From Laetmonice hystrix (taxonomy: Eukaryota): a stretch of 64,000 nt of DNA. Within the stretch, counting starts at the first letter, position 1. Each line of letters starts with the position of its first letter. The notes under the pieces are model-generated. The model had not been told where the DNA came from. It did not search any database and saw only the letters and a list, made by a program, of their open reading frames with translations. A program made the translations under genes and the position numbers. This document shows, one piece after another, positions 1 through 36,943 of this stretch. The stretch is from positions 35,590,001 to 35,654,000 of the forward strand of contig OZ249436.1 of NCBI GenBank assembly GCA_965235115.1, in the 5' to 3' direction.

Positions 1-25
1 ACAAGGTATAGGCCTACGGTAAAGG

Positions 26-213
26 CAGTGGCGGATCCGGAGGGAAGGGGATACGGGGGCTGCCCCCCCCCCCCCCCCGTTTCGAAGTAATCTTTCTTTT
101 TTTTCTGCCTGAAAGGTTCAAACCAAACATACACAACCCCCTGCCAACACCCATAACACCCCCACCCCCCCCCACCCCCACCCCCGGTTAGAGCAAACCC
201 GGATCCGCCCCTG
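26..213. mobile_element. MITE with CAGTGGCGGATCC-type TIRs (hAT-like) in P450 intron 9
   Basis: cagtggcggatccgg ... ccggatccgcccctg inverted termini around a C-rich core. Copies at 11147-11328, 22878-23060 and 34599-34781; related element at 50342-50491. No clear TSD. Confidence 0.65.
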
Positions 214-294
214 CAAGAGTAAACTAAAGAGGGTCTAGATCTATATTTGGACGTGTATAGGGCGTTTCATCCGCGATATCTGTCTAACTTACAG

Positions 295-2022
295 GGCTCT
301 CAACGACTGAGATTCTTGCCAACGCTATCCTGTTCTTTATCGCTGGCTACGACACGACTGCCTCGGCAGTTTGTATGCTCCTGTACAACTTGGCCCTGAA
401 CGACGACTGCCAACAGCAACTCCTACAGGAGATTGATAGCGTTGTGGGAGAGAACGTATGTAATACTGTGTATACATGCGTGACGTACAGACGAGATCAA
501 TGGACAGAAGGGGCGCGGAAAGAAATATTCAACTCCTACTTCTCTTTGTGCATGCGTACATAATATTTCTGGCGGCCTCGGTCCCATGTAACGAGAAACG
601 TTTTTAGCGTCTAGCTTCAGCCCGACATGAGCTTGGGCACATTAAATACACCTGTACATAACCTACGATAAAACAGGACAACAAAGTCAATATACCAAGA
701 CTATAGTCTATCTGCCGAAAGTCCATGGTACGGGGTTAAATCCTTGTCATTTTTTCATTAGGACCTGATCACCTATGACATGTTGTCTGAGATGCCGTAC
801 CTGGACCAATGCATTTCGGAGTCCCTGCGCCTTTTCCCGCCTTTGGTTAGGTAAGTATAGCTAGATTGGGATAGGGAATATAGGTACTAATATATAAAGA
901 TGTAATTTAACGTGGGCTTCTGGCTAAATGCTTGTCCATTCGCATCCTGGGCAACAGCAATATTCTAAATTCAACATGTTCTTGGACTATAGAGGAGAAG
1001 TAGGCTAAACGTTCGTGAAACCTATCACTCATACCGTTTGTTTATATTTGAGAACATTTAAGGTTATTTTTTGACAGGGCCGATCGTGAGGCCAAGCGAG
1101 ACGTCACCATCAATGGGGTCCACATCAAGAAAGGCATGGTTGTAATGATCCCAATATTTGGCATTCACCATGACCCCAAAAAATGGCCAAACCCCCTAAA
1201 GTTTGACCCAACACGGTATGTGGACCCATTAAAACCTATTACTCTATTTCACATTATGAATACGGCCTATGATAGAACTTTAGTAGATCCAGGATTTTTT
1301 AAGGGGTGTGGACCTTTCATATAAGAAAAAAGGGGAAACTGGTGTTGAAAGGGGGTTGAACCCTGCTGGAGCCGCCCTTAGAAAGAGAACATTCTGTCTA
1401 GCCCTTCATGTCCTGATATGCATGAGAAAAACAAATCCAGTGAACAAACCTACAGCCTACAAACTTATAGGTATAGGGCCTAGAAGTAATACTTTATGTA
1501 CATGCGTTCGAATAATAAGCTACAACTTTACATTTTTAGATTTTCGCCGGAGAACAAAGCAGGCCGGAATCCTTTCCATTTCTTCCCGTTTGGAATGGGC
1601 CCTCGGAACTGTATTGGAATGCGGCTTGCCCTGGCCGAGTTAAAGATTGCCATGGTTCATGTCTTACGGAAAGTCAAGGTCACACCAGCTACAGACACGC
1701 CGGTAGGTTTCACGGCTCCCCCCACAAAGGTGGCGGCAAGCAAATTTGAGAACTTTGAAAGTATTTATTGGCAATTGTCGCATGTCACTTGTGAAATTCT
1801 CCTGCTTTGCATGCATGCCTTAATAGTCAACAGTTTGATTCCTCGCTCATATACACTATTATGTCTAGGCTATATAGAGCATAATAGTGAACCATTGTGG
1901 GCTCTTTTAACTGTGTCTCTTTGCCGGTGATGCAGTCGCGGGTGAAATTCACTGTGGCACTACTTCTCACTCCCGCTTCGCCCATCAAGCTCAACGTTGA
2001 GGCCAGGAAGAAATCAAACTGA
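295..2022 (+). CDS. Cytochrome P450, CYP3 clan, copy 1 (partial: exons 10-14; the 5' part lies left of the window)
   Basis: GT-AG exons 295-455, 762-850, 1078-1215, 1540-1702 and 1936-2022 splice in frame. Motifs: I-helix AGYDTT, K-helix ESLR, meander FDPTRF, heme loop FGMGPRNCIG. Stop TGA at 2020-2022. Confidence 0.93.
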
Positions 2023-2270
2023 CACGCTACACTGGACAATCGAGGCTTCCTTGACCTGAATAATGAGACATGGCCTGCTAATACTGACAGGCCGAGAGTT
2101 ACTCGGGCACGATGGTACCATAACCAGCATTTTATATATACCCACTTTAGGTTAGAAGACAGTAATCCAGCCAAGGACATGTAAACATCTCTAACAACCG
2201 TTAGTATATATATTCTGAGCCAATTATGTCAATAAGTCTTTCTTGACTAAGTGGACATTATCTTTCACAT

Positions 2271-2666
2271 TGAAGAAAACCGCCCATTCGAAGTGTTGAA
2301 TGCGCGGCTTTCAACAGCCAGAAAACAGAGCGAGATCCTACTTGTTTGGTAGCTGGCTATGATCTACCGAGCGTTTATTTTACAGTATATATTAAAGTAT
2401 AGTGGTCGGACCGCCGGCAGGCAGCTCCTCCCCTCTTTAGATGGCGGCGTTAGAATTTAATTGGCGTTATCTGCCACACCGCCTCTGCAGAGATCAGGAT
2501 AAGCCAGCCTGGCGAGAAGCACATCCGGCGTCCGGCCATGAAGTACATTTCTAGAAACAACTCTACACATATTAGTGGTCAATAATAAATGTTATAATAA
2601 AGATACTTAATAAATATTACATTAAAGATGCATAATCAATATCTGAACGTCCTTCTATTTTCTACA
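2271..2666 (-). mobile_element. Solo LTR (396 bp), Gypsy-like 4-bp TSD
   Basis: Ends TGAAGAAAA...TTTTCTACA (TG..CA, imperfect short inverted termini), flanked by ACAT/ACAT at 2267-2270 and 2667-2670. The empty site with a single ACAT is seen behind copy 4 (37272-37275). Orientation is inferred from a minus-strand AATAAA about 100 bp from the end. Confidence 0.75.
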
Positions 2667-2863
2667 ACATGTACTATACCGCATGGGAAAGTAGAAAGGA
2701 ATACAGACAATTCACAAATAAAGAACCTTGGAACTATTTTATTTTTGTGTACGGGGCCATATGTTGCGGTCGCAAAACGGGAATAGACATAGACCTACTC
2801 TACTTCTACGTCTATGGGAATAGACACCAGATGGCAGTGCGTAGAAAGTAGTCCGTACAATCA

Positions 2864-3827
2864 GTGCGATATCGGTTTTTATCAGCACAGTTGCAAAGCC
2901 GCTCACATCAACGAATGTCACCATTATCACATGCAGTCCCACAACCACTTTGCCATATAATAAACATACATACGTATATAGGCCTATTAAACGACGTTGT
3001 GAGGTTACTGTATTGTACAACAATGCTGATTTTTCCTTTCATGGTAAAGAAACGCGTGTTAGAGTCAGCTTTATTATCTGCCATTTTGTACAGCTCCGAT
3101 GCCTGGCTCACAACTAACCTCAAGACTGCAGAAACCATGTATCACTCTGTGATAACTTATGCAAAAGGTCACATACGCGAGCGGCAAAATACATTAATGA
3201 ACAAGTGGCTGAGCGAAACCCCATTGGCAGTGACAGCCAAACTTCAACAGCGAGTTGGCAACAGTACACGAACAAAATTTAAGTCGTACTTTGAGGAGAT
3301 CAATCCACAGCTTTCAGTGAACCATATATATCTTGACGATTTCAATAACATTCCCGAGAGGCATCGCGTTGTAGTTTATACTAGACTGAGAAATACATCA
3401 CATTACTTGGCAATAGAGACTATAGTAGGTGGAGCCGCATCCTCCCATGGGGTGTGCTCCTGTGGCGAGCTACAAACAGAACGCCAAGTTATTTGTTGTT
3501 GTCCATTAACTGCCAATGTACGTCGAAAGTATAACGATTTTAACTTTACAGACCTGCCTGAAGTTTTCAGCTATCCGGACGGCCCCGTTATGTGTGCTGC
3601 CGTTACGGAATCATATAACGCTGTAACGAAAAGTTAGAGTTTACGTCCCCGAGTTTTCGTTTTGTGATGACCCGCTGGTCATGTCATTTCGTCTATTACC
3701 GGACCTGACCCTGAATTCATATGTGTGCTTTATGTCCCTTATATGTCTGTTTTTGGTTCCGTTTTGTATCCTGCTTTTGCCTGGGTTTAGTCAATAAAGT
3801 TTACTTACTTTCTTACTTCCTTACTTC

Positions 3828-3870
<43 letters not shown>
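2864..3870 (+). mobile_element. 5'-truncated, decayed non-LTR retrotransposon 3' end (ORF2 C-terminus, 3' UTR, (TTAC)n tail)
   Basis: ORF 2864-3637 contains ILYSSDAW, KFKSY..INP, TRLR..SHYLAIET and CSCGELQTE..VICCCP, typical of LINE ORF2 C-termini. AATAAA at about 3793 is followed directly by the (TTAC)n tail at 3801-3870. The 5' boundary is approximate. Confidence 0.75.
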
Positions 3871-3871
<1 letters not shown>

Positions 3872-5124
3872 TTCAACCGTGCGTTTGACTTGTCTGTGAA
3901 AGTCTATAGCCTACAACAGCTTCAACAGCGGTCTTGATCATCAAACAGCGAAGCGACCGGAAGTTGGGCCGAGGTTTTCCGAATGCATCAAGACCCTAAC
4001 GGCCCCAGCCACACAGTCAGATACAATCTCCCATAATGCAAAGGGGTTTGCTTCGCATACCGCTCTGCCACACATGCCTTTTACAGGCGAAATCGGGCCC
4101 CTAAGCGTTTAACCCCGTTCTATCAAAGTCGGCCGTGCTGTATGGTATCTGTAAAACTTAACGTACCTCTAAACCCCAAAACCGAAAGTATACCAATTAA
4201 ATGACATTCACCGTACAAGAGAAATACCTGATCAAATATTAGGAACTACATTTGCGGAGGGAAATCAGCTAGTCGCAAGTCGGTCGGGGCAATTTCGGGA
4301 TGATTCGAAATACTTCGGGTGTTTCGGACTACTTTCGGACTAGGTACTTCTGCAGATGATTTCTCCGAATATTTAAATGTTTGTGTGGCATCATATTTTG
4401 AGAGTCTGTGCTTAAAAAGTAAACAAGAGTGCCTCAGCTAATTATAACCAGGAAGCAGCGGTCGAGCAGCCATGATTCGAGCTCGACAATGTTCGGCTGT
4501 TCCGGTCGGGGATTTCTAGGTCAGGTCAGGGGTCACTCAAACGGTTACCCAGTGTGTGGCAGCGATTGAACGAAGAGAACGATCTCTGTCCCGAGACTCT
4601 GGTGCATTTCAATAAAGCCCAAAGATATCTTTGAAAACCTCGCTGGAGCCAGGTGCAAGGTTTTTATTGAAACACTGTATTACCGTGGCCCAGAAGTATC
4701 ATCATTGTTTTTTCTGCATTTAATTTTGATTTTTTTTAACATTTGATTGTAGATGAATTTGATGATGAATAATCCACAGTCTCTAAACCAACACGTTGGT
4801 GGCGAAGGGGTCGGTGGTAGGATTCAGTGCATCAAGGACACTCCGTTCACTTCGATGATCCATTGAAAGTGAGACCGACGTTGGGTGATTTTCGTTGGGT
4901 TCCAAACTGACCGCAAGATGGCGTGTGTGAAGTTACCAGCAGGTGGAGCTAGTTCAAAGCGATTGAAACTATTATTCATTTACTCAATCAACTTATATTA
5001 CCGTGATTGAGAGACTCGAAATAATGGAGTTCCCTCTTTTCCGCGTGGCGGCAGCACTATCGCCTGCGAGTCTCCCAATTGTGCTACTCTGTATGTATCC
5101 CTAAAAGCGCTTTTCCTCTTTAAG

Positions 5125-5751
5125 CTTCTGCTATAGGCGCTATAAGCTTCTTATCGGTTCCTTTGACACGTGCCATAATGTCAAAGTTGGTCAGCCTTGA
5201 TGAACAAGGTAATCATCTCTGTCCTTATTAACATAGCCTTATAACTGTAACTTTATTTTTTTAATTAATTAACCGATGTACCAGCAAATCTTACTTGTGT
5301 TTGTCTTATTCTAAAGGTGCTTTATTCGGAGTTATGACATGCGCCAACAACGCTGCGACTCTGGTGAGCAGTTTGGCAGTCAACCAGCTCTACAGCGCCA
5401 CCCTGCTTGTCATGCGTGGGTTCATCTTCATGACGGGTGCGATATGTGGCACCATCAGCGTAGGCCTTCTCATGTACGTCCCCGGACCATCGATGTCAGC
5501 ATTAATCTGACAGAGAAAGCACTTTCTGTCATCAGTAATAGACCTACCAGCGTAGATAGTTTCTCATGGTGACAGCGCGGTCAGGGATGGATCATGAATC
5601 TCGTTAATGTACAAAATGTGCATGAATGAAGTTAGTCTTCCTTCAGAGGTTAAAGCTGTTCTCTGTTTTTTTTTTCAGATTATATATCTGGAAGACACGC
5701 TCAGGGGGAAAACGCACTCTCCGCAACAGAAAAGCTTTAAACGATAACTAG
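5125..5751 (+). pseudogene. Orphan 3' exons of an SLC46/PCFT-like MFS transporter (unit 1, three exons)
   Basis: Exons 5125-5208 (84 nt, SAIGAISFLSVPLTRAIMSKLVSLDEQG), 5317-5473 (157 nt, ALFGVMTCANNAATLVSSLAVNQLYSATLLVMRGFIFMTGAICGTISVGLL) and 5679-5751 (ends TAG) splice in frame. R..MSKLV...EQGALF....N.LY.AT is the SLC46 C-terminal signature. No 5' exons are present in the unit. Confidence 0.82.
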
Positions 5752-5854
5752 TGTGGTCCTGTCCATACGAAAGAATACGTGTACGGTATTTAAATGAGGT
5801 ATTATGACATGTGAAAACATAGAATAGGGTCGCAGTGTCGGTACATACAGTGTT

Positions 5855-5859
5855 CTTTT

Positions 5860-5918
<59 letters not shown>

Positions 5919-5932
5919 CTCTTTCTTTCTTT
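5855..5932. repeat. (CTTT)n microsatellite
   Basis: Read directly; shorter versions at about 17595-17663 and 29320-29384. Confidence 0.95.
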
Positions 5933-6965
5933 CGTTTGGACGACGGAACATTTTAACAAATGGGATTCTGTTATATTATACCTGTTTGCTTATAAATTAT
6001 TAGCCAGTGTGAATTCTGACAGCATATTGTAACGGTCAAGACCTGGCATCTATTTTTAGGCATTACAACTTCCGTCCATCATGGCAGAGCACAGTTATTT
6101 TTAGCTGATGACGTCCTTCCCACCTTGATTCATCTTTTTGCATATTACAAGACAGTGGTCTAAATAGGCCTACTTTTGGTTTTATTGTGGTTTATTCGTT
6201 CGGTTAGTTTTACACAATGTTGAGTAGATATATAATGCGTTCTGGTGACAGCCACGGTTATATAACTTGCAGTGTGTGACTGGGTGCGTCCCAGATTTTG
6301 AACTCGTGCACTTGATTTGTGTACTACGATATGTTCAGGGAACGGCTTCTAAGAACCGTTATACGATTTGTATACTCGTTGACTGACTAATTAAATGTGT
6401 AAACTGCACCACTCTTTGAGTCCTCAGTTTTCTATAGTGTTAATGCCATCCAGTGATCGTTCCCCCGCTGCCCGCCCCCCACGCATAACGAAGTACTATT
6501 CGAACACAACGGAGAAGTACGAGATGACATGTATGCAATGGCCGTTTGTTGTTGGGTATATGAAGGATTCTTTATTATTTCACAGCTAAACACTCCACCA
6601 AACGCCAAAGAACCGTTGCAACATTCTGACAGAGATACAACCGCCACCACATAAGAGTTAGATACTGTTGAGACTAACGGTAGGGTACTTTATGTGTCGC
6701 GAGCGGGAACACACACAGGTCTGGTATCATCCCGCTAGCCTCCCACCCGCTAGACCCCCGTTTAGCGGGCGGGGGGGGGGGGGGCTAGCGGGGGTAATCC
6801 GTAGGTCTATATAATGCAGGCCTATATATAGGCACATTACTGAGTCAGTCGCGGCAAATATACGTATACATACCCTTTGGATGGTCAGCCAGAATGAGGG
6901 AGGAGAACTGAAAGCGCCGCGTCAACCTATAATAGACCTGAGAGCCTTTCCAGGAGCTGTTTGTT

Positions 6966-6972
6966 TATATAA
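6966..6972 (+). promoter_or_regulatory. Candidate TATA box of the P450
   Basis: TATATAA about 50 bp upstream of the ATG at 7017; same site at 18697-18703 and 30417-30423. An AP-1-like TGAGTCA lies at 6841-6847. Confidence 0.55.
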
Positions 6973-7016
6973 GAAATCTTCGCTGAGTTAACCGGCCAAC
7001 ACTGACGGCGATCAAC

Positions 7017-10000
7017 ATGTTGCTGTTGGGCATTGTGGAAATCCCGCTATGGGTCATCCTGGGATGCCTCGCCATCACGATATTCCTCGTGTAAGTAGAG
7101 CACTGACCTATAAACTTTATATTCCCCTAGCCTTGTATGGCGAGCCTTGTATACCCGATCAGTAGGTCAATATATCTATTACTTGGAGACTGAATATACA
7201 CACATATCACGTATATACGAAACACTGCTTCATGCTATAGCTGCTTCGATTTGCTTCGAGTTCAAATACAGTCAATCCTCATTACAATGTAGGCCTATCT
7301 CTCCGACACCTTGAAATAAAGCCGAAAAAAAGTGATCTCTCACCTAATTTTTCTCCGGAGACGGGCGAGCAATGGAGTTTTTAGAAATAGTTTCAGAAGA
7401 GAAGAGGGTGCTTCATCACAGATATGTAATATTGTCCCAATGGGCCACCGATTACCCACCAAACGGTGGGCCTCCTTCTAATTGTTTTCCATCATGCTTG
7501 AAAAGGCCTAGTCTGACTTGGTGCAAGTGGTCTTTTAGGGGTTTTTGATAAAATGGACCATTAGTTCTCTATATCATTGGTCACATCGGAGTGGTTCAAC
7601 CACCAAACTGAAGCATGATTAGTTACTCCTTCGCGATAAGTATAGCTTTGCTTATTTTTCAAAATTTCATACATATGGCATACAATGGGTATATACACAA
7701 AGTATAGGTTTGACTGTAGTCCTTCCCCCTCCCCTCAATGTGTACGGGCATATACACATATACACTCGCAATTTGTAGGCTAAATTAAAGCAGAGAACAT
7801 ACAGTTTAGTCTAAAAATGAGAATTCTCGACATATCGTGCAATGCTCTGACAATAAGCATTCGGTCAGATATTCATGTATAGGTCTCTTTCTTTTTTACA
7901 GTTACAATACGTGGCACTTCAACTTCTTCCGCAAACAGGGCATCCCGGGAGATCGGCCATGGCCAATCATCGGAAATATTTCATTTAGGGGCGATCGCGT
8001 CAAGGTACAGATCAAAAATAGAGTCTACTGATTGAAATGGGCAATAATCAGATCGGGACATATCCAGTGCATGCCACCTGTGCTTTAAATTGTCATGTGG
8101 TTAAACGTAGGGGCCTATACCACATAATGTAGGCTTATCGTTTCAAATTGGCATCATGGGCGACCTGTTTTTTTATCACAGCCGAACGTGATTGGTTGAA
8201 ATGATTGACTCTAAATACTGCCCCCTCTTTACATCCATATCCTCGCATATTATATAGGAATGAAATTATTTTAAAGAAGCAGGGTGTCAAAATGAATGGT
8301 AATGAAATCCAACCGCTATAATTCCAGGAGTACCCGTACATGGAGACCGAAATTCAGGAGAAACATGGGGACATATTTGCGTAGGTATAGTCCTACTGTA
8401 ACCTCACTCGAATCCCGTACTTTGAACCACTGGGCGTGACCTAGAAACCTAGTAGGCCTATGAGAGGGCCCCTAGCTGCTATGTATGCAACACACATCTT
8501 TGGATAGAAGTTTATCCAATAAGCCGGTCGGCCGGCCCGCCGGTCCGTAATGCCGATTCCGAAAATGCATAGGTGTATAGTTGGGCCCATTACAATGAGT
8601 GTAGACATCAATAAGGTACATAATATATCAGCACATACAAATATATCGCAAAATGGTTTCCGATTTTTGTTAACTATGGCCTATAGGCCTACACAAAGGT
8701 GAAGGAAACTATAGGCAAGGATGGGTATTGTCATCTCTTATCCATTGCAGAGAATTCATCGGCCGTATTCCCTGCCTTGTAGTGCACGATGAGAGCTTTC
8801 TATCGGAAGTTTTGGTCAAGAGTTTCCCGGACTTTTGTGATCGATCGGTGAGTGGAAACTACTATAATCTTCAGTCCAGGCCCAGGTTTTAGAAAGCCTC
8901 AAAGCAGCAAACTTGAAGCTAAGCAGGACTACGGTGGCCCATGAGGACAAGGACCTTAACTTTCTACATTGATTTTCATAGATATTTCACGGCAATGGCA
9001 ATATCACCACGGATAAATTATTATCAATATGAAAATATCGATGAAAATAGATCTAGAAAGTTATAAACAATAAAGATCTATATTCCTGGGTTGCCGTATA
9101 GCTCTGCTTAGCTTAAAGCTTGCTGCTTACAGCCTTTCTGAAACCGTGGCCAGATTGTAAACGATATCATTTTCAACCCTTTTCATTCCATAGATTAACG
9201 CATAAATGCATGGAAAATAGGTAACTTTTCCAACAACAACAAAAACGAAGTTAAGCACATTTTAATGAGTTCAACTTTCAGAGTGTACTCAACGGAGACG
9301 AAGTGAGTGATGCTATGCTACTCAACAGTATGGGAGAAAGATGGAAGCGCATGCGCAGTTATATGACCCCAACATTCAGCACTGGTAAACTAAAACAGGT
9401 GAATATCTGTTTCAATCTCATTTCACCAATACAAGTGGTGCATGGAAAGTATCTCAACACTACGATAAGCACTCATTTACACTGGACATCCTGGCATGCT
9501 TGAAACTAAGGAGGCTAATGAGGTTTTCATTTTAGGTGAGAAAACAGGTCTTATTAAAATTGGTGAATTGGGGGTGGGGGGGGGGGTCATAGATATATCC
9601 ATTCCAAACACCTCTCCCATGAGGATAATATACGTTTCAGATGATCCCCGAGATCAACCGGTGTGCTCGGCAGTTGGCCAACAACCTGGCGAAAGAGGCC
9701 GAAAAGGGAGAAACTCTAGACATGCGTGGGTAAGTATTTGGAACTTCAGTAAAACCCTTATAGCCATTATAATGTAGCAGTCTAATAATAAATGAGTCTA
9801 TCTCGCTCACAAATGTCATTGTTAGTTTCTTCTGTTCAAATCCGTAATTAATTATGTAGGCTATGTATTAATCTAATTTGTGTGCAGTTTGACTGGCGCC
9901 TTTTCCATGGATGTCATCGCCAGCACGGCGTTCGGCATGCGGGTGGACTCTCAGAACGATGCCGACAGTGTATTTGTCCAGAAGGCCAAACGCGGCTTTA

Positions 10001-24869: not shown

Positions 24870-25117
24870 CACGCTACACTGGACAATCGAGGCTTCCTTG
24901 ACCTGAATAATGAGACATGGCCTGCTGATACTGACAGGCCGAGAGTTACTCGGGCACGATGGTACCATAACCAGCATTTTATATATACCCACTTTAGGTT
25001 AGAAGACAGTAATCCAGCCAAGGACATGTAAACATCTCTAACAACCGTTAGTATATATATTCTGAGCCAATTATGTCAATAAGTCTTTCTTGACTAAGTG
25101 GACATTATCTTTCACAT

Positions 25118-25513
25118 TGAAGAAAACCGCCCATTCGAAGTGTTGAATGCGCGGCTTTCAACAGCCAGAAAACAGAGCGAGATCCTACTTGTTTGGTAGC
25201 TGGCTATGATCTACCGAGCGTTTATTTTACAGTATATATTAAAGTATAGTGGTCGGACCGCCGGCAGGCAGCTCCTCCCCTCTTTAGATGGCGGCGTTAG
25301 AATTTAATTGGCGTTATCTGCCACACCGCCTCTGCAGAGATCAGGATAAGCCAGCCTGGCGAGAAGCACATCCGGCGTCCGGCCATGAAGTACATTTCTA
25401 GAAACAACTCTACACATATTAGTGGTCAATAATAAATGTTATAATAAAGATACTTAATAAATATTACATTAAAGATGCATAATCAATATCTGAACGTCCT
25501 TCTATTTTCTACA
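25118..25513 (-). mobile_element. Solo LTR, unit 3 copy
   Basis: Same sequence and ACAT TSD as 2271-2666. Confidence 0.75.
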
Positions 25514-25710
25514 ACATGTACTATACCGCATGGGAAAGTAGAAAGGAATACAGACAATTCACAAATAAAGAACCTTGGAACTATTTTATTTTTGTGTACG
25601 GGGCCATATGTTGCGGCCGCAAAACGGGAATAGACATAGACCTACTCTACTTCTACGTCTATGGGAATAGACACCAGATGGCAGTGCGTAGAAAGTAGTC
25701 CGTACAATCA

Positions 25711-26674
25711 GTGCGATATCGGTTTTTATCAGCACAGTTGCAAAGCCGCTCACATCAACGAATGTCACCATTATCACATGCAGTCCCACAACCACTTTGC
25801 CATATAATAAACATACATACGTATATAGGCCTATTAAACGACGTTGTGAGGTTACTGTATTGTACAACAATGCTGATTTTTCCTTTCATGGTAAAGAAAC
25901 GCGTGTTAGAGTCAGCTTTATTATCTGCCATTTTGTACAGCTCCGATGCCTGGCTCACAACTAACCTCAAGACTGCAGAAACCATGTATCACTCTGTGAT
26001 AACTTATGCAAAAGGTCACATACGCGAGCGGCAAAATACATTAATGAACAAGTGGCTGAGCGAAACCCCATTGGCAGTGACAGCCAAACTTCAACAGCGA
26101 GTTGGCAACAGTACACGAACAAAATTTAAGTCGTACTTTGAGGAGATCAATCCACAGCTTTCAGTGAACCATATATATCTTGACGATTTCAATAACATTC
26201 CCGAGAGGCATCGCGTTGTAGTTTATACTAGACTGAGAAATACATCACATTACTTGGCAATAGAGACTATAGTAGGTGGAGCCGCATCCTCCCATGGGGT
26301 GTGCTCCTGTGGCGAGCTACAAACAGAACGCCAAGTTATTTGTTGTTGTCCATTAACTGCCAATGTACGTCGAAAGTATAACGATTTTAACTTTACAGAC
26401 CTGCCTGAAGTTTTCAGCTATCCGGACGGCCCCGTTATGTGTGCTGCCGTTACGGAATCATATAACGCTGTAACGAAAAGTTAGAGTTTACGTCCCCGAG
26501 TTTTCGTTTTGTGATGACCCGCTGGTCATGTCATTTCGTCTATTACCGGACCTGACCCTGAATTCATATGTGTGCTTTATGTCCCTTATATGTCTGTTTT
26601 TGGTTCCGTTTTGTATCCTGCTTTTGCCTGGGTTTAGTCAATAAAGTTTACTTACTTTCTTACTTCCTTACTTC

Positions 26675-26713
<39 letters not shown>
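25711..26713 (+). mobile_element. LINE 3' end, unit 3 copy
   Basis: Same ORF remnant; tail one repeat shorter. Confidence 0.75.
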
Positions 26714-26714
<1 letters not shown>

Positions 26715-27894
26715 TTCAACCGTGCGTTTGACTTGTCTGTGAAAGTCTATAGCCTACAACAGCTTCAACAGCGGTCTTGATCATCAAACAGCGAAGCGAC
26801 CGGAAGTTGGGCCGAGGTTTTCCGAATGCATCAAGACCCTAACGGCCCCAGCCACACAGTCAGATACAATCTCCCATAATGCAAAGGGGTTTGCTTCGCA
26901 TACCGCTCTGCCACACATGCCTTTTACAGGCGAAATCGGGCCCCTAAGCGTTTAACCCCGTTCTATCAAAGTCGGCCGTGCTGTATGGTATCTGTAAAAC
27001 TTAACGTACCTCTAAACCCCAAAACCGAAAGTATACCAATTAAATGACATTCACCGTACAAGAGAAATACCTGATCAAATATTAGGAACTACATTTGCGG
27101 AGGGAAATCAGCTAGTCGCAAGTCGGTCGGGGCAATTTCGGGATGATTCGAAATACTTCGGGTGTTTCGGACTACTTTCGGACTAGGTACTTCTGCAGAT
27201 GATTTCTCCGAATATTTAAATGTTTGTGTGGCATCATATTTTGAGAGTCTGTGCTTAAAAAGTAAACAAGAGTGCCTCAGCTAATTATAACCAGGAAGCA
27301 GCGGTCGAGCAGCCATGATTCGAGCTCGACAATGTTCGGCTGTTCCGGTCGGGGATTTCTAGGTCAGGTCAGGGGTCACTCAAACGGTTACCCAGTGTGT
27401 GGCAGCGATTGAACGAAGAGAACGATCTCTGTCCCGAGACTCTGGTGCATTTCAATAAAGCCCAAAGATATCTTTGAAAACCTCGCTGGAGCCAGGTGCA
27501 AGGTTTTTATTGAAACACTGTATTACCGTGGCCCAGAAGTATCATCATTGTTTTTTCTGCATTTAATTTTGATTTTTTTTAACATTTGATTGTAGATGAA
27601 TTTGATGATGAATAATCCACAGTCTTTAAACCAACACGTTGGTGGCGAAGGGGTCGGTGGTAGGATTCAGTGCATCAAGGACACTCCGTTCACTTCGATG
27701 ATCCATTGAAAGTGAGACCGACGTTGGGTGATTTTCGTTGGGTTCCAAACTGACCGCAAGATGGCGTGTGTGAAGTTACCAGCAGGTGGAGCTAGTTCAA
27801 AGCGATTGAAACTATTATTCATTTACTCAATCAACTTATATTACCGTCACCTCCGTGCGTTAATATCTATTTAATTTTTAAATTTTTCCCTGTA

Positions 27895-28135
27895 ATTCTC
27901 ACCTCGGTGGTAATTATTTCACCCTCGGTGGAAATTATTTCAACCTCGGTGGTAAGTATTCTCACCTTAGTGGAAATTATTCAACCTCGGTGGAAATTAT
28001 TTCAACCTCGGTGGAAATTATCTCAACCTCGGTGGAAATTATCCTAACCTCAGTGCTAATTATTCTAACCTCAGTAGTAATTATTTCAACCTCGGTGGAA
28101 ATTGTTTCAACCTCGGTGGAAATTATTTCAACCTC
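27895..28135. repeat. 21-bp minisatellite, unit 3 copy
   Basis: Same array as 16167-16407. Confidence 0.93.
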
Positions 28136-29215
28136 TTAAAACGATGGTTCTCAGATGAAACCTTAACACTCTCCGCAAGGATTGCAACTGTGGCGGAGAA
28201 CCTCTATTTGATGTTGGCCTCGACGACATTAATGATGTTTTTCGGTAAGGAAAATCTCACAATTAGCCTGAATGGGTCATCTGATTTTGGCGCTTGTTCA
28301 GGGCGTAGAATGAATAACCAGATCTGTTGGTCACAAGATTGTTATACAGTGTTAAATTTCTATTTACATGTACTGGTAGTTACTTCTACATTAAAGAATC
28401 TAATAGACATACAAATGATTTTAAGTTGACTGATATGACCATTTGAATATGTTTTATGCTGGCTCGATGGTGATTGAGAGACTCGAAATAATGGAGTTCC
28501 CTCTTTTCCGCGTGGCGGCAGCACTATCGCCTGCGAGTCTCCCAATTGTGCTACTCTGTATGTATCCCTAAAAGCGCTTTTCCTCTTTAAGCTTCTGCTA
28601 TAGGCGCTATAAGCTTCTTATCGGTTCCTTTGACACGTGCCATAATGTCAAAGTTGGTCAGCCTTGATGAACAAGGTAATCATCTCTGTCCTTATTAACA
28701 TAGCCTTATAACTGTAACTTTATTTTTTTAATTAATTAACCGATGTACCAGCAAATCTTACTTGTGTTTGTCTTATTCTAAAGGTGCTTTATTCGGAGTT
28801 ATGACATGCGCCAACAACGCTGCGACTCTGGTGAGCAGTTTGGCAGTCACCCAGCTCTACAGCGCCACCCTGCTTGTCATGCGTGGGTTCATCTTCATGA
28901 CGGGTGCGATATGTGGCACCATCAGCGTAGGCCTTCTCATGTACGTCCCCGGACCATCGATGTCAGCATTAATCTGACAGAGAAAGCACTTTCTGTCATC
29001 AGTAATAGACCTACCAGCGTAGATAGTTTCTCATGGTGACAGTGCGGTCAGGGATGGATCATGAATCTCGTTAATGTACAAAATGTGCATGAATGAAGTT
29101 AGTCTTCCTTCAGAGGTTAAAGCTGTTCTCTGTTTTTTTCAGATTATATATCTGGAAGACACGCTCAGGGGGAAAACGCACTCTCCGCAACAGAAAAGCT
29201 TTAAACGATAACTAG
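28133..29215 (+). pseudogene. Orphan 3' exons of SLC46-like transporter (unit 3)
   Basis: Exons 28133-28244 (truncated), 28592-28675, 28784-28940 and 29143-29215; one N>T change relative to the other units. Confidence 0.85.
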
Positions 29216-29323
29216 TGTGGTCCTGTCCATACGAAAGAATACGTGTACGGTATTTAAATGAGGTATTATGACATGTGAAAACATAGAATAGGGTCGCAGT
29301 GTCGGTACATACAGTGTTCTTTT

Positions 29324-29370
<47 letters not shown>

Positions 29371-30467
29371 CTCTTTCTTTCTTTCGTTTGGACGACGGAA
29401 CATTTTAACAAATGGGATTCTGTTATATTATACCTGTTTGCTTATAAATTATTAGCCAGTGTGAATTCTGACAGCATATTGTAACGGTCAAGACCTGGCA
29501 TCTATTTTTAGGCATTACAACTTCCGTCCATCATGGCAGAGCACAGTTATTTTTAGCTGATGACGTCCTTCCCACCTTGATTCATCTTTTTGCATATTAC
29601 AAGACAGTGGTCTAAATAGGCCTACTTTTGGTTTTATTGTGGTTTATTCGTTCGGTTAGTTTTACACAATGTTGAGTAGATATATAATGCGTTCTGGTGA
29701 CAGCCACGGTTATATAACTTGCAGTGTGTGACTGGGTGCGTCCCAGATTTTGAACTCGTGCACTTGATTTGTGTACTACGATATGTTCAGGGAACGGCTT
29801 CTAAGAACCGTTATACGATTTGTATACTCGTTGACTGACTAATTAAATGTGTAAACTGCACCACTCTTTGAGTCCTCAGTTTTCTATAGTGTTAATGCCA
29901 TCCAGTGATCGTTCCCCCGCTGCCCGCCCCCCACGCATAACGAAGTACTATTCGAACACAACGGAGAAGTACGAGATGACATGTATGCAATGGCCGTTTG
30001 TTGTTGGGTATATGAAGGATTCTTTATTATTTCACAGCTAAACACTCCACCAAACGCCAAAGAACCGTTGCAACATTCTGACAGAGATACAACCGCCACC
30101 ACAGAAGAGTTAGATACTGTTGAGACTAACGGTAGGGTACTTTATGTGTCGCGAGCGGGAACACACACAGGTCTGGTATCATCCCGCTAGCCTCCCACCC
30201 GCTAGACCCCCGTTTAGCGGGCGGGGGGGGGGGGGCTAGCGGGGGTAATCCGTAGGTCTATATAATGCAGGCCTATATATAGGCACATTACTGAGTCAGT
30301 CGCGGCAAATATACGTATACATACCCTTTGGATGGTCAGCCAGAATGAGGGAGGAGAACTGAAAGCGCCGCGTCAACCTATAATAGACCTGAGAGCCTTT
30401 CCAGGAGCTGTTTGTTTATATAAGAAATCTTCGCTGAGTTAACCGGCCAACACTGACGGCGATCAAC

Positions 30468-33400
30468 ATGTTGCTGTTGGGCATTGTGGAAATCCCGCTA
30501 TGGGTCATCCTGGGATGCCTCGCCATCACGATATTCCTCGTGTAAGTAGAGCACTGACCTATAAACTTTATATTCCCCTAGCCTTGTATGGCGAGCCTTG
30601 TATACCCGATCAGTAGGTCAATATATCTATTACTTGGAGACTGAATATACACACATATCACGTATATACGAAACACTGCTTCATGCTATAGCTGCTTCGA
30701 TTTGCTTCGAGTTCAAATACAGTCAATCCTCATTACAATGTAGGCCTATCTCTCCGACACCTTGAAATAAAGCCGAAAAAAAGTGATCTCTCACCTAATT
30801 TTTCTCCGGAGACGGGCGAGCAATGGAGTTTTTAGAAATAGTTTCAGAAGAGAAGAGGGTGCTTCATCACAGATATGTAATATTGTCCCAATGGGCCACC
30901 GATTACCCACCAAACGGTGGGCCTCCTTCTAATTGTTTTCCATCATGCTTGAAAAGGCCTAGTCTGACTTGGTGCAAGTGGTCTTTTAGGGGTTTTTGAT
31001 AAAATGGACCATTAGTTCTCTATATCATTGGTCACATCGGAGTGGTTCAACCACCAAACTGAAGCATGATTAGTTACTCCTTCGCGATAAGTATAGCTTT
31101 GCTTATTTTTCAAAATTTCATACATATGGCATACAATGGGTATATACACAAAGTATAGGTTTGACTGTAGTCCTTCCCCCTCCCCTCAATGTGTACGGGC
31201 ATATACACATATACACTCGCAATTTGTAGGCTAAATTAAAGCAGAGAACATACAGTTTAGTCTAAAAATGAGAATTCTCGACATATCGTGCAATGCTCTG
31301 ACAATAAGCATTCGGTCAGATATTCATGTATAGGTCTCTTTCTTTTTTACAGTTACAATACGTGGCACTTCAACTTCTTCCGCAAACAGGGCATCCCGGG
31401 AGATCGGCCATGGCCAATCATCGGAAATATTTCATTTAGGGGCGATCGCGTCAAGGTACAGATCAAAAATAGAGTCTACTGATTGAAATGGGCAATAATC
31501 AGATCGGGACATATCCAGTGCATGCCACCTGTGCTTTAAATTGTCATGTGGTTAAACGTAGGGGCCTATACCACATAATGTAGGCTTATCGTTTCAAATT
31601 GGCATCATGGGCGACCTGTTTTTTTATCACAGCCGAACGTGATTGGTTGAAATGATTGACTCTAAATACTGCCCCCTCTTTACATCCATATCCTCGCATA
31701 TTATATAGGAATGAAATTATTTTAAAGAAGCAGGGTGTCAAAATGAATGGTAATGAAATCCAACCGCTATAATTCCAGGAGTACCCGTACATGGAGACCG
31801 AAATTCAGGAGAAACATGGGGACATATTTGCGTAGGTATAGTCCTACTGTAACCTCACTCGAATCCCGTACTTTGAACCACTGGGCGTGACCTAGAAACC
31901 TAGTAGGCCTATGAGAGGGCCCCTAGCTGCTATGTATGCAACACACATCTTTGGATAGAAGTTTATCCAATAAGCCGGTCGGCCGGCCCGCCGGTCCGTA
32001 ATGCCGATTCCGAAAATGCATAGGTGTATAGTTGGGCCCATTACAATGAGTGTAGACATCAATAAGGTACATAATATATCAGCACATACAAATATATCGC
32101 AAAATGGTTTCCGATTTTTGTTAACTATGGCCTATAGGCCTACACAAAGGTGAAGGAAACTATAGGCAAGGATGGGTATTGTCATCTCTTATCCATTGCA
32201 GAGAATTCATCGGCCGTATTCCCTGCCTTGTAGTGCACGATGAGAGCTTTCTATCGGAAGTTTTGGTCAAGAGTTTCCCGGACTTTTGTGATCGATCGGT
32301 GAGTGGAAACTACTATAATCTTCAGTCCAGGCCCAGGTTTTAGAAAGCCTCAAAGCAGCAAACTTGAAGCTAAGCAGGACTACGGTGGCCCATGAGGACA
32401 AGGACCTTAACTTTCTACATTGATTTTCATAGATATTTCACGGCAATGGCAATATCACCACGGATAAATTATTATCAATATGAAAATATCGATGAAAATA
32501 GATCTAGAAAGTTATAAACAATAAAGATCTATATTCCTGGGTTGCCGTATAGCTCTGCTTAGCTTAAAGCTTGCTGCTTACAGCCTTTCTGAAACCGTGG
32601 CCAGATTGTAAACGATATCATTTTCAACCCTTTTCATTCCATAGATTAACGCATAAATGCATGGAAAATAGGTAACTTTTCCAACAACAACAAAAACGAA
32701 GTTAAGCACATTTTAATGAGTTCAACTTTCAGAGTGTACTCAACGGAGACGAAGTGAGTGATGCTATGCTACTCAACAGTATGGGAGAAAGATGGAAGCG
32801 CATGCGCAGTTATATGACCCCAACATTCAGCACTGGTAAACTAAAACAGGTGAATATCTGTTTCAATCTCATTTCACCAATACAAGTGGTGCATGGAAAG
32901 TATCTCAACACTACGATAAGCACTCATTTACACTGGACATCCTGGCATGCTTGAAACTAAGGAGGCTAATGAGGTTTTTATTTTAGGTGAGAAAACAGGT
33001 CTTATTAAAATTGGTGAATTGGGGGTGGGGTGGGGGGGTCATAGATATATCCATTCCAAACACCTCTCCCATGAGGATAATATACGTTTCAGATGATCCC
33101 CGAGATCAACCGGTGTGCTCGGCAGTTGGCCAACAACCTGGCGAAAGAGGCCGAAAAGGGAGAAACTCTAGACATGCGTGGGTAAGTATTTGGAACTTCA
33201 GTAAAACCCTTATAGCCATTATAATGTAGCAGTCTAATAATAAATGAGTCTATCTCGCTCACAAATGTCATTGTTAGTTTCTTCTGTTCAAATCCGTAAT
33301 TAATTATGTAGGCTATGTATTAATCTAATTTGTGTGCAGTTTGACTGGCGCCTTTTCCATGGATGTCATCGCCAGCACGGCGTTCGGCATGCGGGTGGAC

Positions 33401-36400
33401 TCTCAGAACGATGCCGACAGTGTATTTGTCCAGAAGGCCAAACGCGGCTTTAGTCGGTCAATGTTCAACCCTCTCTATCTTCTGGCCTGTAAGGGAATTT
33501 GTCTGCTTCAACAGCCATAATACATGATCTAGTATTTCTCTTCTCAGACCGCCACAAGACAACATTTAGAAACAGATGTTGCTTTTTTATTTAACATCGC
33601 AGAGGACGGATATTCTGACATTTTTCTTCATATTTTTCTATAAGCCTATATTTGAAGTTCAATTCCATTTCATGGAAAGTATTGGTTTAACCCATTAAAC
33701 TCTATGCATAGATCAATTTGTAATACCCCCCCCCCCCCCAAAAAAAAAGGAACAGAAAGCTGGCCTATTGATTTCTTATTACTAGATTCATTAGGCCTAA
33801 CTATCACCTAGCGGGACACAAAGTAGGCTAACCATGCCCAACATTATGTTTGTAGTTTTCCTCCCGGCCGCCGTTCCACTGGCAACGAAGTTGGGTCTGA
33901 ACAGCTTTTTGCCTCGTGACGTCATGGATTTCTTTAGGGACGTAACCCTAAAAGCAATGGAAGCTCGTAAGACCAACCAAGATCAGGTAATAGGCCTATT
34001 ATACACATAAAAATAGAATCAACGTCATGACAGATTGGTCCAGACACGTGTAGATCTATTTATTTAGCAAATGTTGGACGGCAGCGAGTCCACTATACAG
34101 TTTACGGGACTTCGAAAAGCGATAATGGCTTCGGCTTCGCCTCGCCGCACTTTTCTTCGTCCCGTAAACTAAGTCCTATAGTGGACTCACCGCCATACAA
34201 CATTTGTAGGCCTATCATATAATCGAAAGGGGCCGTCCATCACTTAGGCTACGTAACGCGAAATTTTGACCAAACTACATAATGTATGGATCAGGTTGAG
34301 CACTGTAGTCTCATATTCTCATAAGGGTGATGTTGATCATGTAGATTTACAATCTTTTTGTCTCGTGTATTTCTTTGCAAAGAGTCGTACCGATTTCCTA
34401 CAATTAGTGATGAACGTTGAGCGGGATGAGAACGTACAGGCAGTGCCAGACACCGGCCATGACAAGGACGTAACGAAACCAACTAAAGGTACAACTGTGC
34501 TCATTGTCCGCATCTCTCTGCACACCTGAAAGGCCGGAAATTAATACCACGTTCATTTCGTTCAAACTCTAGCACAAGGTATAGGCCTACGGTAAAGGCA
34601 GTGGCGGATCCGGAGGGAAGGGGATACGGGGGTTGCCCCCCCCCCCGTTTCGAAGTAATCTTTCTTTTTTTTCTGCCTGAAAGGTTCAAACCAAACATAC
34701 ACAACCCCCTGCCAACACCCATAACACCCCCACCCCCCCCCACCCCCACCCCCGGTTAGAGCAAACCCGGATCCGCCCCTGCAAGAGTAAACTAAAGAGG
34801 GTCTAGATCTATATTTGGACGTGTATAGGGCGTTTCATCCGCGATATCTGTCTAACTTACAGGGCTCTCAACGACTGAGATTCTTGCCAACGCTATCCTG
34901 TTCTTTATCGCTGGCTACGACACGACTGCCTCGGCAGTTTGTATGCTCCTGTACAACTTGGCCCTGAACGACGACTGCCAACAGCAACTCCTACAGGAGA
35001 TTGATAGCGTTGTGGGAGAGAACGTATGTAATACTGTGTAAACATGCGTGACGTACAGACGAGATCAATGGACAGAAGGGGCGCGGAAAGAAATATTCAA
35101 CTCCTACTTCTCTTTGTGCATGCGTACATAATATTTCTGGCGGCCTCGGTCCCATGTAACGAGAAACGTTTTTAGCGTCTAGCTTCAGCCCGACATGAGC
35201 TTGGGCACATTAAATACACCTGTACATAACCTACGATAAAACAGGACAACAAAGTAATTAAGGGTGAGGTCAATATACCAAGACTAGTCTATCTGCCGAA
35301 AGTCCATGGTACGGGGTTAAATCCTTGTCATTCTTTCTTCAGGACCTGATCACCTATGACAAGTTGTCTGAGATGCCGTACCTGGACCAATGCATTTCGG
35401 AATCCCTGCGCCTTTTCCCGCCCTTGGTTAGGTGAGTATAGCTAGATGGGGATAGGGAATATACATGTATAGGTACCAATATATAAAGATGTAATTTAAC
35501 GTGGGCTTCTGGCTAAATGCTTGTCCATTCGCATCCTGTGCAACAGCAATATTCTAAATTCAACATGTTCTTGGACTATAGAGGAGAAGTAGGCTAAACG
35601 TTCGTGAAACCTATCACTCATACCGTTTGTTTATATTTGAGAACATTTAAGGTTATTTTTCTGACAGGGCCAATCGTGAGGCCAAGCGAGACGTCACCAT
35701 CAATGGGGTCCACATCAAGAAAGGCATGATTGTAATGATTCCAATATTTGGCATTCACCATGACCCCAAAAAATGGCCAAACCCCCTACAGTTTGACCCA
35801 ACAAGGTATGTGGACCCATTAAAACCTATTACTCTAGTTCACATTATTATGTCCTTCTTGGCTTCTTCTTTATAAGCTGTCCATATGAATACCAATACGG
35901 CCTATGATAGAACTTTAGTAGATCCAGGATTTTTTAAGGGGTGGGGACCTTTAATATAAGAAAAAAAGGAAAACTGGTGTTGAAAGGGGGTTGAACCCTG
36001 CTGGAACCGCCCTTAGAAAGAGAGTTACATTCTGTCTAGCCCTTCATGTCCTGATACGCCATGAGAAAAACAAATCCAATGAACTCACTTTAAGACTCTG
36101 GATTGGAGAACAGATGTATCGAAAAATGGGTTCCGTCAATGAAGGACATGATCCTCCATAGCCAGAGAAGTATAGCTTGGTAAATTATATTCTTGGCAGT
36201 GCTGACCCCTCCCTCCCCCAAACCAATTCTTACTCTAAACCCCCCGTCCCCACCCCCTTACCAAAGTCCTGGATCCGCCCGGGCCGGGCAGCCCCTGCTC
36301 AGGGTCTGCTACAAGACGTGGACTCTACCATTCTTTACAAATGCTGGACCGGTCTTTTATGCCTTTTATTCTAAGCCTACAAACTTACAAGGTATAGGGC

Positions 36401-36943
36401 CTAGGAGTAACTTTATGTACATGCGTTCGAATAATAAGCTACAACTTTACATTTTTAGATTTTTGCCGGAGAACAAAGCAGGTCGGAATCCTTTCCATTT
36501 CTTCCCGTTTGGAATGGGCCCTCGGAACTGTATTGGAATGCGGCTTGCCCTGGCTGAGTTAAAGATTGCCATGGTTCATGTCTTACGGAAAGTCAAGGTC
36601 ACACCAGCTACAGACACGCCGGTAGGTTTCACGGCTCCTCCCACAAAGGTGGCGGCAAGCAAATTTGAGAACTTTAAAAGTATTTATTGGCAATTGTCGC
36701 ATGTCACTTGTGAAATTCTCCTGCTTTGCATGCATGCCTTAATAGTCAACAGTTTGATTCCTCGCTCATATACACTATTATGTCTAGGCTATATAGAGCA
36801 TATAATAGTGAACCATTGTGGGCTCTTTTAACTGTGTCTCTTTGCCGGTGATGCAGTCGCGTGTGAAATTCACTGTGGCACCACTTCTCACTCCTGCTTC
36901 GCCCATCATGCTCAACGTTGAGGCCAGGAAGAAATCAAACTGA
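30468..36943 (+). CDS. Cytochrome P450, CYP3 clan, copy 4 (complete, 14 exons; exons 11-14 diverged from copies 1-3)
   Basis: Exons 30468-30541, 31353-31455, 31779-31831, 32202-32298, 32733-32849, 33093-33181, 33340-33488, 33856-33986, 34383-34488, 34863-35023, 35343-35431, 35668-35805, 36459-36621, 36857-36943. Frame and all P450 motifs intact. Confidence 0.95.

Follow-up and report, generated by a model that had tools for sequence, protein, structure and literature searches.

A tandem array of near-identical clan-3-type cytochrome P450 genes in Laetmonice hystrix, with a change of sequence type in intron 10

The P450 genes and their repeat units

The window analysed here, a 64,000-nucleotide stretch of the genome of the annelid Laetmonice hystrix, contains a tandem array of near-identical cytochrome P450 genes, which lie on the forward strand (+) like all other features described below. 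Three genes are full and one is represented by its 3′ part. The partial gene, copy 0 (295..2022), retains exons 10–14 and continues at its 5′ end beyond the window; its 3′ half is of the type found in the inner copies (A-type). Copy 1 (7017..13137) and copy 2 (18748..24869) are full genes of this inner type. Copy 3, the terminal copy (30468..36943), is identical to the inner copies in exons 1–10 and has diverged exons 11–14 (B-type). Each full copy is composed of 14 exons and 13 GT-AG introns, with a coding sequence of 1557 nt that specifies 518 aa and ends in a single terminal stop. A self-alignment of 19,369 columns at 99.2% identity excludes chance as the origin of the repeat. An intact, amplified P450 in at least four copies, three full and one partial, with intact frames and splice sites, had been proposed in a preliminary description of this DNA and is found again here.

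All three full copies carry the heme-thiolate motif FGMGPRNCIG at residues 453–462, together with WKRMR at 130, AGYDTT at 323, ESLR at 380 and DPTRF at 433, which we take to represent the P450 patterns FxxGxRxCxG, WxxxR, AGxDTT, ExxR and PERF-like, respectively. Three of six exons searched singly (exons 10, 12 and 13) scored above the cut-off for PF00067, and exons 5, 7 and 8 alone gave no match. CYP3A chains were the top solved structures for exons 10, 12 and 13, in the last case barely ahead of CYP4B1; exon 14 alone matched no solved structure, and a homologue search with exon 10 alone returned nothing at E≤0.001. The exon sizes include 53, 89, 149, 161, 89+138=227 and 163, presumably equal to the human CYP3A4 exon sizes 53, 89, 149, 161, 227 and 163. 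Most of the named top homologues bear a CYP3A-like label, and a quick tree, built from 50 rows hand-picked among 188 proteins and lacking outgroups from clan 2, clan 4 and the mitochondrial clan, places the gene on a branch shared with siboglinid CYP3A-like proteins (SH-aLRT 95). Identity reaches 40–42% to siboglinid proteins (Ridgeia P0015, Lamellibrachia P0077–P0079), 38.3% to newt CYP3A and 39.96% to pig CYP3A, with a maximum of 44% (P0081) among the 188 proteins. P450s are assigned to one family at ≥40% identity and to one subfamily at ≥55% (PMC4229089). Judged by its sequence, the gene is a clan-3-type P450, which we do not file as CYP3A since its 38–40% identity to vertebrate CYP3A does not exceed the 40% family threshold. 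By analogy with other clan-3 P450s, the enzymes are likely to oxidise lipophilic xenobiotics or steroids.

The repeat unit is phased at intron 10 and most likely runs from an A-type 3′ half through a spacer to a 5′ half of the B gene. Three units were delimited: V1 (686..11800; 11,115 bp, without a 624-bp segment), V2 (11801..23532; 11,732 bp) and V3 (23533..35253; 11,721 bp). Any two of them differ by 14–15 SNPs over about 11.1–11.7 kb (0.12–0.135%; overall 0.10–0.14%), as well as by homopolymer and microsatellite lengths and the 624-bp indel. One of the substitutions, G>A at 12665, changes an encoded residue (E440K) and occurs only in the copy at 7017–13137, which confirms the E>K change previously noted as unique to one copy. 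At column 440, 42 of the 44 full-length homologues have E. The letter at 12665 could be an assembly error, as it is absent among the 40 listed of 342 read-contig comparison rows.

Each unit carries the upstream region with the promoter (28136..30467 for the terminal copy), where 3 substitutions in 2332 bp separate the last two copies. The length of a spliced contig described below suggests a transcript start near 30397. The suggestion that the copies have matching promoters is borne out over the proximal 2 kb; farther up it fails for the first full copy, which lacks the 624-bp segment. This segment lies at 16118..16741, with a second instance at 27846–28469, and contains a 21-bp minisatellite. 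In the first spacer it has been lost, at 5002/5003, with a GT microhomology of 2 bp. An old duplication junction probably falls within it, at 16407/16408 and 28135/28136. The downstream flank of the terminal copy (37096..39022) is homologous to the spacers, with 49 substitutions in 1819 aligned bases (2.7%), and is likely a remnant of the older A/B duplication. The last homology between flank and spacers is a 21-bp minisatellite of 15.5 copies (39278..39614), the positional homologue of the spacer minisatellites.

A change of sequence type in intron 10

The sequence shared by the terminal and inner copies stops in a switch zone in intron 10 (35024..35254), where the first A/B difference is a 15-bp indel at 35254; the zone has counterparts near 685, 11800 and 23532. 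Upstream of 35254, 6 of 7115 bases separate the terminal copy from the inner ones, as against 44 of 1485 after this point (Fisher p=9e-28). The diverged B-type 3′ half (35254..37095) is distinguished from the inner copies by 2.96% substitutions and 12 indel events. Insertions in the terminal copy past 35254 include ones of about 15, 8, 45 and 281 bp, and another of about 76 bp lies just beyond 37095. Thus the earlier view that the units differ only by scattered SNPs, microsatellites and one 624-bp indel describes the inner units well but does not extend to the last copy, given its divergence past 35254. The first 685 bp of copy 0 match the terminal copy at 678 of 680 aligned bases (p=3e-7 under 2.96%), and the identical switch is found in all three inner 3′ halves, that of copy 0 included. 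A single crossover placement explains the whole array. The switch is sharp, falls at corresponding positions of two diverged paralogs and leaves the frame intact, as in interparalog P450 chimeras of the Cyp12a4/5 and CYP337B3 type.

The coding sequences of the terminal copy and of the third copy in the array differ at 13 sites, all within exons 11–14. Seven of these are non-synonymous: the terminal copy has K367, N392, I411, Q431, L438, P499 and M508, where the inner copies have M, D, V, K, S, L and K, respectively. With 7 non-synonymous and 6 synonymous differences, the two 3′ types have a dN/dS of 0.36, a value that lends no support to positive selection between them. Residue D/N392 aligns to the CYP3A4 pocket residue E374. 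Residue L/P499 aligns, via newt CYP3A and in a variable, gapped stretch, to the pocket residue G481. From these two alignments, a slight shift in the substrate preference of the inner-type enzymes relative to B is predicted. However, 14 of the 44 homologues have D in column 392 and 12 have N, and since both are common the D/N392 change may be functionally silent.

We consider that the inner copies are probably B/A hybrids, with a 5′ part from gene B and a 3′ part from gene A, that arose by unequal crossover between two older tandem paralogs and were then multiplied. The terminal copy would then likely be the parental gene B. We infer the direction of the hybrid, the 5′ half of parent A presumably lying upstream of the window. 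An old tandem duplication would first have produced an A-B pair joined at the 21-bp minisatellite; this pair is supported by the homology of the spacers to the flank of the terminal copy as far as the minisatellite. Misaligned pairing and a crossover in or near intron 10 would then have converted A-B into A-[B/A]-B. The frame would be preserved in the hybrid, since the two paralogs share their intron positions. Further unequal exchanges would have given at least three B/A units, which would since have diverged by about 0.1%, one of them losing the 624-bp segment. Each hybrid would thus join the B promoter and residues 1–360 of B to residues 361–518 of A, and 7 residues would set it apart from B.

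In the converse arrangement, which seems to us rather unlikely, an intact gene A was simply duplicated to give the inner copies, and the terminal copy is either a 5′A/3′B hybrid or a B gene that received its first 7 kb from A by gene conversion. It requires two separate recombinations or a conversion tract of more than 7 kb. Nevertheless, the window holds a single kind of 5′ half, from which the direction cannot be read directly. The inner copies also keep the homologue consensus at two of the seven changed positions, which agrees with their being the intact gene: position 431 is K in 29 of 44 homologues, and position 438 is S or T in 43 of 44.

Both 3′ types in read-derived contigs and expression

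The array was compared with Logan contigs, which retain the major allele, from four runs (X1–X4) of one sample that is possibly the source of the assembly. Runs X1–X3 are DNA. In each of these three runs, inner-type letters are found at 22 of the 22 listed diagnostic sites, so that the recent amplification of a clan-3-type P450 put forward in the preliminary description is probably real. The inner-type joints 35847>35894, 36084>36390 and 37092>37170 are present in X1–X3, and contigs with the terminal-copy insertions occur at 35921/35976–36439. Contig depth is rough and by its nature gives no copy number, several contig spans having been deduced from the table; on this scale, X2 and X3 give about 117–136 for the inner 3′ type and about 55 for the terminal 3′ type. 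The shared 5′ half has a rough depth of 142–144, less than the two 3′ types give together (172–200), and in X1 the depth is uneven, ranging from 74 to 146 across the 5′ half. An excess of summed 3′ depths over the 5′ depth is predicted if some A 3′ halves are joined to another 5′ half, and it argues, roughly, against the inner copies being plain duplicates of A. On the other side, no clear second 5′ type appears among the contig rows listed: of the 15 joints listed out of 107, none gave a clear pointer to a second diverged 5′ half, and the four located in the 5′ half belong to a high-copy intron repeat.

These contigs also bear on the possibility that the array is in part an assembly artefact, in which units of both haplotypes (for example 2+1) were stacked and each chromosome has fewer copies. 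The units are 99.9% alike and 11–12 kb long, no single listed contig spans the stretch compared, which excludes the unit-to-unit junction, and the total depth fits just about 4–5 copies per diploid rather than double the count in the window. Pure stacking of two haplotypes of a single gene was ruled out, as two alleles of one gene cannot yield three distinct inner units in addition to a B type that seemingly has two alleles itself. Counted against the window, the terminal-type contig has 3 (X1), 4 (X2) and 0 (X3) different letters, which is what one would expect if each haplotype had a B 3′ end. Moreover, each pair of units is separated by 5–10 transitions, and at 12679 and 13195 two units share a letter unlike that of the terminal copy, a pattern that does not resemble consensus noise. 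The prevalence of inner-type letters at the listed sites, the presence of both 3′ types and an inner depth about twice that of B likewise argue against a pure assembly artefact. Partial stacking is very unlikely in our estimation. Copy-number polymorphism is plausible in view of the total depth.

Run X4 was taken as RNA-like from a spliced contig and from exon-sized depth in 10 of the 23 bins compared (12 counting two empty intron or upstream bins); the other bins are raised, mostly where repeats also swell the DNA runs. The spliced contig agrees with the exon model. At 12 of the 13 diagnostic sites listed it has the letter of the terminal copy, from which it departs at one letter (36895), and it shows no other letters in exons 7 and 10, which indicates that the main path joins the B 3′ end to the 5′ type of the window. 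That a B-type transcript, albeit one unlike copy 3 at 36895, keeps this 5′ type is a further argument against a plain duplication of A. In X4 a joint belonging to the 3′ UTR of the inner type is likewise found (2 contigs, depth 84.8), so that inner-type transcripts may be substantial. X4 has no separate inner-type coding contig, which reflects missing cover among collapsed contigs and is no sign of silence.

An AATAAA is located at 37162, inside the 76-bp UTR insertion found only in B, and might shorten the UTR of B. However, an X4 contig extends past it and reaches 37244.

The preliminary description had regarded the array as extra intact copies of one gene acting by dosage. This view is not supported, as the array consists of two kinds of gene joined in intron 10 and the spliced contig is of the terminal type at nearly all listed sites. 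The inner copies are alike over their full length, but the terminal copy departs from them by the seven residues in exons 11–14. Selection of the array for raised enzyme dosage against a toxin would be favoured by the intactness and common proximal promoter of all full copies, by the well-known duplications of P450s linked to resistance, and by the induction of the Capitella clan-3 P450 CYP331A1 by PAHs. Against it, the spliced contig is terminal-type and the DNA contigs are inner-type, which hints that the more numerous inner copies are not dominant in the RNA-like run, and one inner copy is altered at a near-invariant residue (E440K). The XRE core was found 0 times in each of the three upstream regions, with about 0.8 expected by chance, and says little either way. 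Overall, we regard selection for dosage as unlikely. Returning to the B/A hybrids, these would most likely represent a recombination product that segregates under neutrality or weak selection, while much of the mRNA would still come from parent B. A more far-reaching proposal is that this wild marine annelid bears, on a single chromosome, a newly formed and since amplified chimera in which the promoter and front substrate sites of B, combined with SRS-5 and SRS-6 of A, confer an activity absent from both parents, and that this chimera is gaining ground where a pollutant or dietary toxin acts, like CYP337B3 but outside insects; we hold this to be improbable.

Relation to other P450 loci

Gains in P450 copy number and interparalog chimeras are already well described in insects and humans. 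The Cyp12a family of Drosophila belongs to the mitochondrial clan. In Drosophila melanogaster, Cyp12a4/Cyp12a5 is a chimera of neighbouring paralogs that was formed by non-allelic homologous recombination and is polymorphic in populations (PMC4040991). As in the Laetmonice array, the frame is kept and the chimera lies in a cluster beside a parental gene. The Drosophila locus involves three genes and a tested link to lufenuron resistance, whereas here there are at least three near-identical hybrid-type units of a clan-3 gene and one parent is represented only in part. The Helicoverpa armigera gene CYP337B3 likewise has its 5′ part from one paralog and its 3′ part from another through unequal crossing-over, with several crossover points (PMC6211633). 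CYP337B3 is reported as a haplotype alternative to the B1–B2 pair and has a new activity that has been shown; in Laetmonice a parent would persist beside multiplied hybrids, and the parents would differ by just about 3% in DNA. Human CYP2D6-CYP2D7 hybrids, for instance *68 in two or three copies next to a CYP2D6 allele (PMC10744512), resemble the present case in that hybrid copies derived from unequal crossover were multiplied in a tandem P450 locus. However, CYP2D6 and CYP2D7 belong to clan 2 and CYP2D7 is a pseudogene (CYP2D7P1), while both 3′ types described here have open frames.

Amplification of a P450 in Myzus persicae is reportedly tied to insecticide resistance. Two further cases are 3–4 tandem copies of CYP6AA1 with insecticide resistance in Anopheles funestus (PMC7297382) and amplification of Cyp6g1 in Drosophila with raised expression and insecticide resistance (PMC4889967). 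The Laetmonice array has in common with these three cases a recent tandem gain of clan-3 P450 copies. It differs from them in that its unit is phased inside the gene.

Among the open-licence PMC and bioRxiv papers listed in literature searches, none was found to describe amplification or a chimera of a clan-3 P450 in an annelid. The value of the locus is that of a clean case, at the nucleotide level, in an annelid: a single contig appears to record an old duplication junction, a crossover in intron 10, a later multiplication and a deletion in a spacer. An array that appears to be of the dosage type can be a hybrid array, and the 13 coding differences allow the expression and activity of hybrid and parent to be tested directly.

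Gene copies and a mosaic terminal copy

A tandem array occupies about 1-39,500 of the window in self-alignment, one alignment running over 19,369 columns at 99.2% identity. Exon models place in it, all on the forward strand, a partial P450 copy comprising exons 10-14 (c0, 295-2022) and three complete ones, c1 (7017-13137), c2 (18748-24869) and the terminal c3 (30468-36943). Every intron in c0-c3 has GT-AG borders, and the coding sequences of c1, c2 and c3 are each 1557 nt long, encoding 518 amino acids with a single terminal stop, in agreement with the preliminary description of three full copies and a partial one with open frames and good splice sites. The P450 motifs WxxxR, AGxDTT, ExxR, PERF-like and heme were found in c1-c3 by pattern scanning. 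The G>A change at 12665, reported earlier as an E>K replacement unique to one copy, is E440K and is private to c1.

Compared pairwise, the repeat units show 14-15 SNPs (0.12-0.135%), length differences in simple repeats and one 624-bp indel. The preliminary description allowed only differences of this kind; that holds between units but not for c3, which is a mosaic relative to the other copies, diverged from 35254. Compared with c2, c3 has 3 substitutions in 2332 bases upstream and 3 in 4783 from the ATG to 35253, against 44 in 1485 aligned bases, plus 12 indel events, over 35254-37095 (Fisher p=9e-28 for before versus after 35254). Exons 11-14 carry all 13 coding differences between c3 and the inner copies (c0-c2), seven of which alter residues (367, 392, 411, 431, 438, 499 and 508). 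The inner 3′ type is called A and the terminal one B. The first 685 bases of c0 belong with the shared sequence, differing from c3 at 2 of 680 positions, so c0 has the same switch. AATAAA at 37162 falls within a 3′ UTR insertion specific to c3; the inner copies have their first AATAAA 562 nt past the stop.

The DNA downstream of c3 is a piecewise homologue of the inter-copy spacers (49 substitutions in 1819 aligned bases) as far as a 21-bp minisatellite, present in the spacers and at 39278-39614. Because the 624-bp segment contains this minisatellite, the segment is ancestral and was lost from the first spacer, where the deletion shows GT microhomology. Every spacer has a 261-aa stop-free frame (13967-14752 and equivalents), with a 132-aa counterpart in the c3 flank (37388-37786), both without a Pfam match; the 261-aa frame looks like the C-terminal end of a LINE ORF2.

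Elsewhere in the window, a minus-strand rhodopsin-family GPCR (45974-48421; Pfam 7tm_1, E=1e-34), which may be melatonin-receptor-like, has three exons, near 48281-48421, 47631-47729 and 45977-46840. Two matches fall below the cut-off: a broken reverse-transcriptase fragment (42122-42861, minus strand; RVT_1, E=1e-5) and a 140-aa frame (48434-48856; ZSWIM3_N, E=6.5e-4), possibly a Mutator-like relic, adjoined by a 50-bp x17 tandem array (48962-49812). Minisatellites have periods of 89 bp (39633-40124), 55 bp (43379-43633) and 148 bp (51386-51988). A large foldback (56170-57454) is built around repeat units of about 150 bp; its 512-nt arms are 98% complementary and overlap a second, 229-nt inverted pair.

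Origin of the array and DNA reads

We consider it probable that the inner copies are 5′B/3′A products of unequal crossover, later multiplied. In the simplest history, an old tandem duplication would have given A-B with its junction at the 21-bp minisatellite; unequal crossover, at intron 10 or close to it, would then have yielded A-[5′B/3′A]-B, and more unequal exchanges would have multiplied the units. Sequence comparison in intron-10 phase delimits forward-strand units at 686-11800, 11801-23532 and 23533-35253; pairwise they differ by 11, 16 and 13 SNPs. At 35100 and 35141, c0 and c3 have letters in common that are absent from c1 and c2, which could reflect two crossover points or later mutation. 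If this history holds, the array should begin, before the start of the window, with a gene whose 5′ half is diverged.

The stretch was found in four runs from one sample and one study, possibly the source of the assembly itself. Their contigs (X1-X3, DNA; X4, RNA-like) were compared with 29400-39270, the unit-to-unit junction lying outside that stretch. Among the 40 of 342 letter rows listed, 22 set c3 apart from each of c0, c1 and c2, and in X1, X2 and X3 alike the main letter is the inner one at 22/22. X1-X3 contain both inner-type joints, among the 15 of 107 joints listed, and B-type insertion contigs. Against the window, the contig specific to B shows 3 letter differences and 12 gap letters in X1, 4 letter differences in X2 and none in X3, which suggests two B alleles.

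Depth, corrected for shared 31-mers, was compared with X1 excluded as uneven, 3 of 15 contig rows sharing at least 60% of their words with B dropped, and some spans inferred. In X2 and X3 the shared 5′ half came to 142-144; 3′ ends had 117-136 if of type A and ~55 if of type B. Contig depth is no copy number; as a rough guide, these values fit about 4-5 : 4 : 2 copies per diploid. The ratio speaks against stacking of two alleles of one gene, and it agrees with an array that is heterozygous or stacked in part; partial stacking of units by the assembler seems to us quite improbable. It also leans towards additional A 3′ halves joined to another 5′ half. The converse arrangement, in which the inner genes are intact A and the last copy is either a hybrid or the product of conversion, we judge unlikely.

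Chimeras of adjacent P450 paralogs formed by non-allelic recombination are reported for Cyp12a4/5 and Cyp6a17/23 (PMC4040991), CYP337B3 is another (PMC6211633), and CYP2D6-2D7 hybrids occur multiplied (PMC10744512). A search of open-licence PMC and bioRxiv literature found no annelid case of an amplified or chimeric clan-3 P450. The present array is real and recent, has more structure than first described, and is of a known kind, probably that of the neighbouring-paralog chimeras Cyp12a4/5, CYP337B3 and CYP2D6-2D7.

Transcripts and dosage

X4 is read as an RNA-like run from a spliced contig and from bin depths that agree with exon lengths in 10/23 bins and fall to zero in two bins that hold no exon. 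The listed pieces of this 1748-nt contig are exons 7, 10, 13 and 14, with spacings that fit the intervening exons, and its length is accounted for by the 1677 nt of the modelled spliced sequence together with some 71 nt of 5′ UTR; it supports the exon and splice model. Increased dosage, which the preliminary description inferred, would predict a majority of inner-type mRNA, whereas this contig, covering 14 listed rows (13 diagnostic), carries the terminal letter at 12/13. The inner letter at 36895 is flanked by terminal letters on both sides, so that the contig looks like a second B allele. Since Logan contigs reduce variation to the major allele (10.1101/2024.07.30.605881), the contig hints, contrary to the dosage expectation, that B-type mRNA is not outnumbered by the inner type, although contigs give no levels. 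On the other side, the inner-type UTR joint 37092>37170 is present in X4 (depth 84.8, two contigs), and A-type 3′ ends are therefore probably transcribed as well. A precedent is Cyp28d1, whose tandem duplicates are expressed unequally (10.1101/114967).

For mosquitoes and a bivalve, tandem gains of P450 genes and sweeps have been described (PMC7297382; PMC9976758). Among polymorphic new genes in Drosophila, 19-26% are chimeric, but chimeric genes rarely attain high frequency (PMC4889967), so the prior for adaptation is low. We hold adaptive dosage, a separate functional claim, to be doubtful.

Deep X4 contigs (about 580) match only part of the 3′ flank (37212-37340), and others end loosely at a conserved exon-7 motif (33357-33396); the source of both may be a repeat, or else a paralog that is more distant and strongly expressed.

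Protein family and predicted pocket

Exons 10, 12 and 13, three of the six searched singly, passed Pfam p450, and CYP3A structures ranked top for the same exons in a structure-database search. The best identity among 188 fetched proteins was 44% (unnamed), with siboglinid annelids at 40-42% and vertebrate CYP3A at 38-40%. A quick tree of 50 rows, built without outgroup clans, groups the protein with annelid proteins (SH-aLRT 95). It is filed as a clan 3 protein, probably annelid; given the 40%/55% identity rule for P450 naming and clan make-up (PMC4229089; PMC4076195), 38-40% does not place it in CYP3A.

Residue 392 aligns to CYP3A4 E374, with numbering set from the residue lists in PMC6332164, and residue 499 to G481 via newt CYP3A; E374 and G481 touch docked drugs (PMC6332164). 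SRS-5 is the K/beta1 loop beside R375, and SRS-6 the C-terminal region (10.1101/2020.06.09.142851). The hybrid would thus combine B front sites with A SRS-5/6. E440K falls on a column that is E in 42/44 homologues. As dN/dS between the A and B 3′ types is 0.36 and column 392 is mixed (D in 14/44, N in 12/44 homologues), the functional effect of the predicted hybrid pocket may be small.
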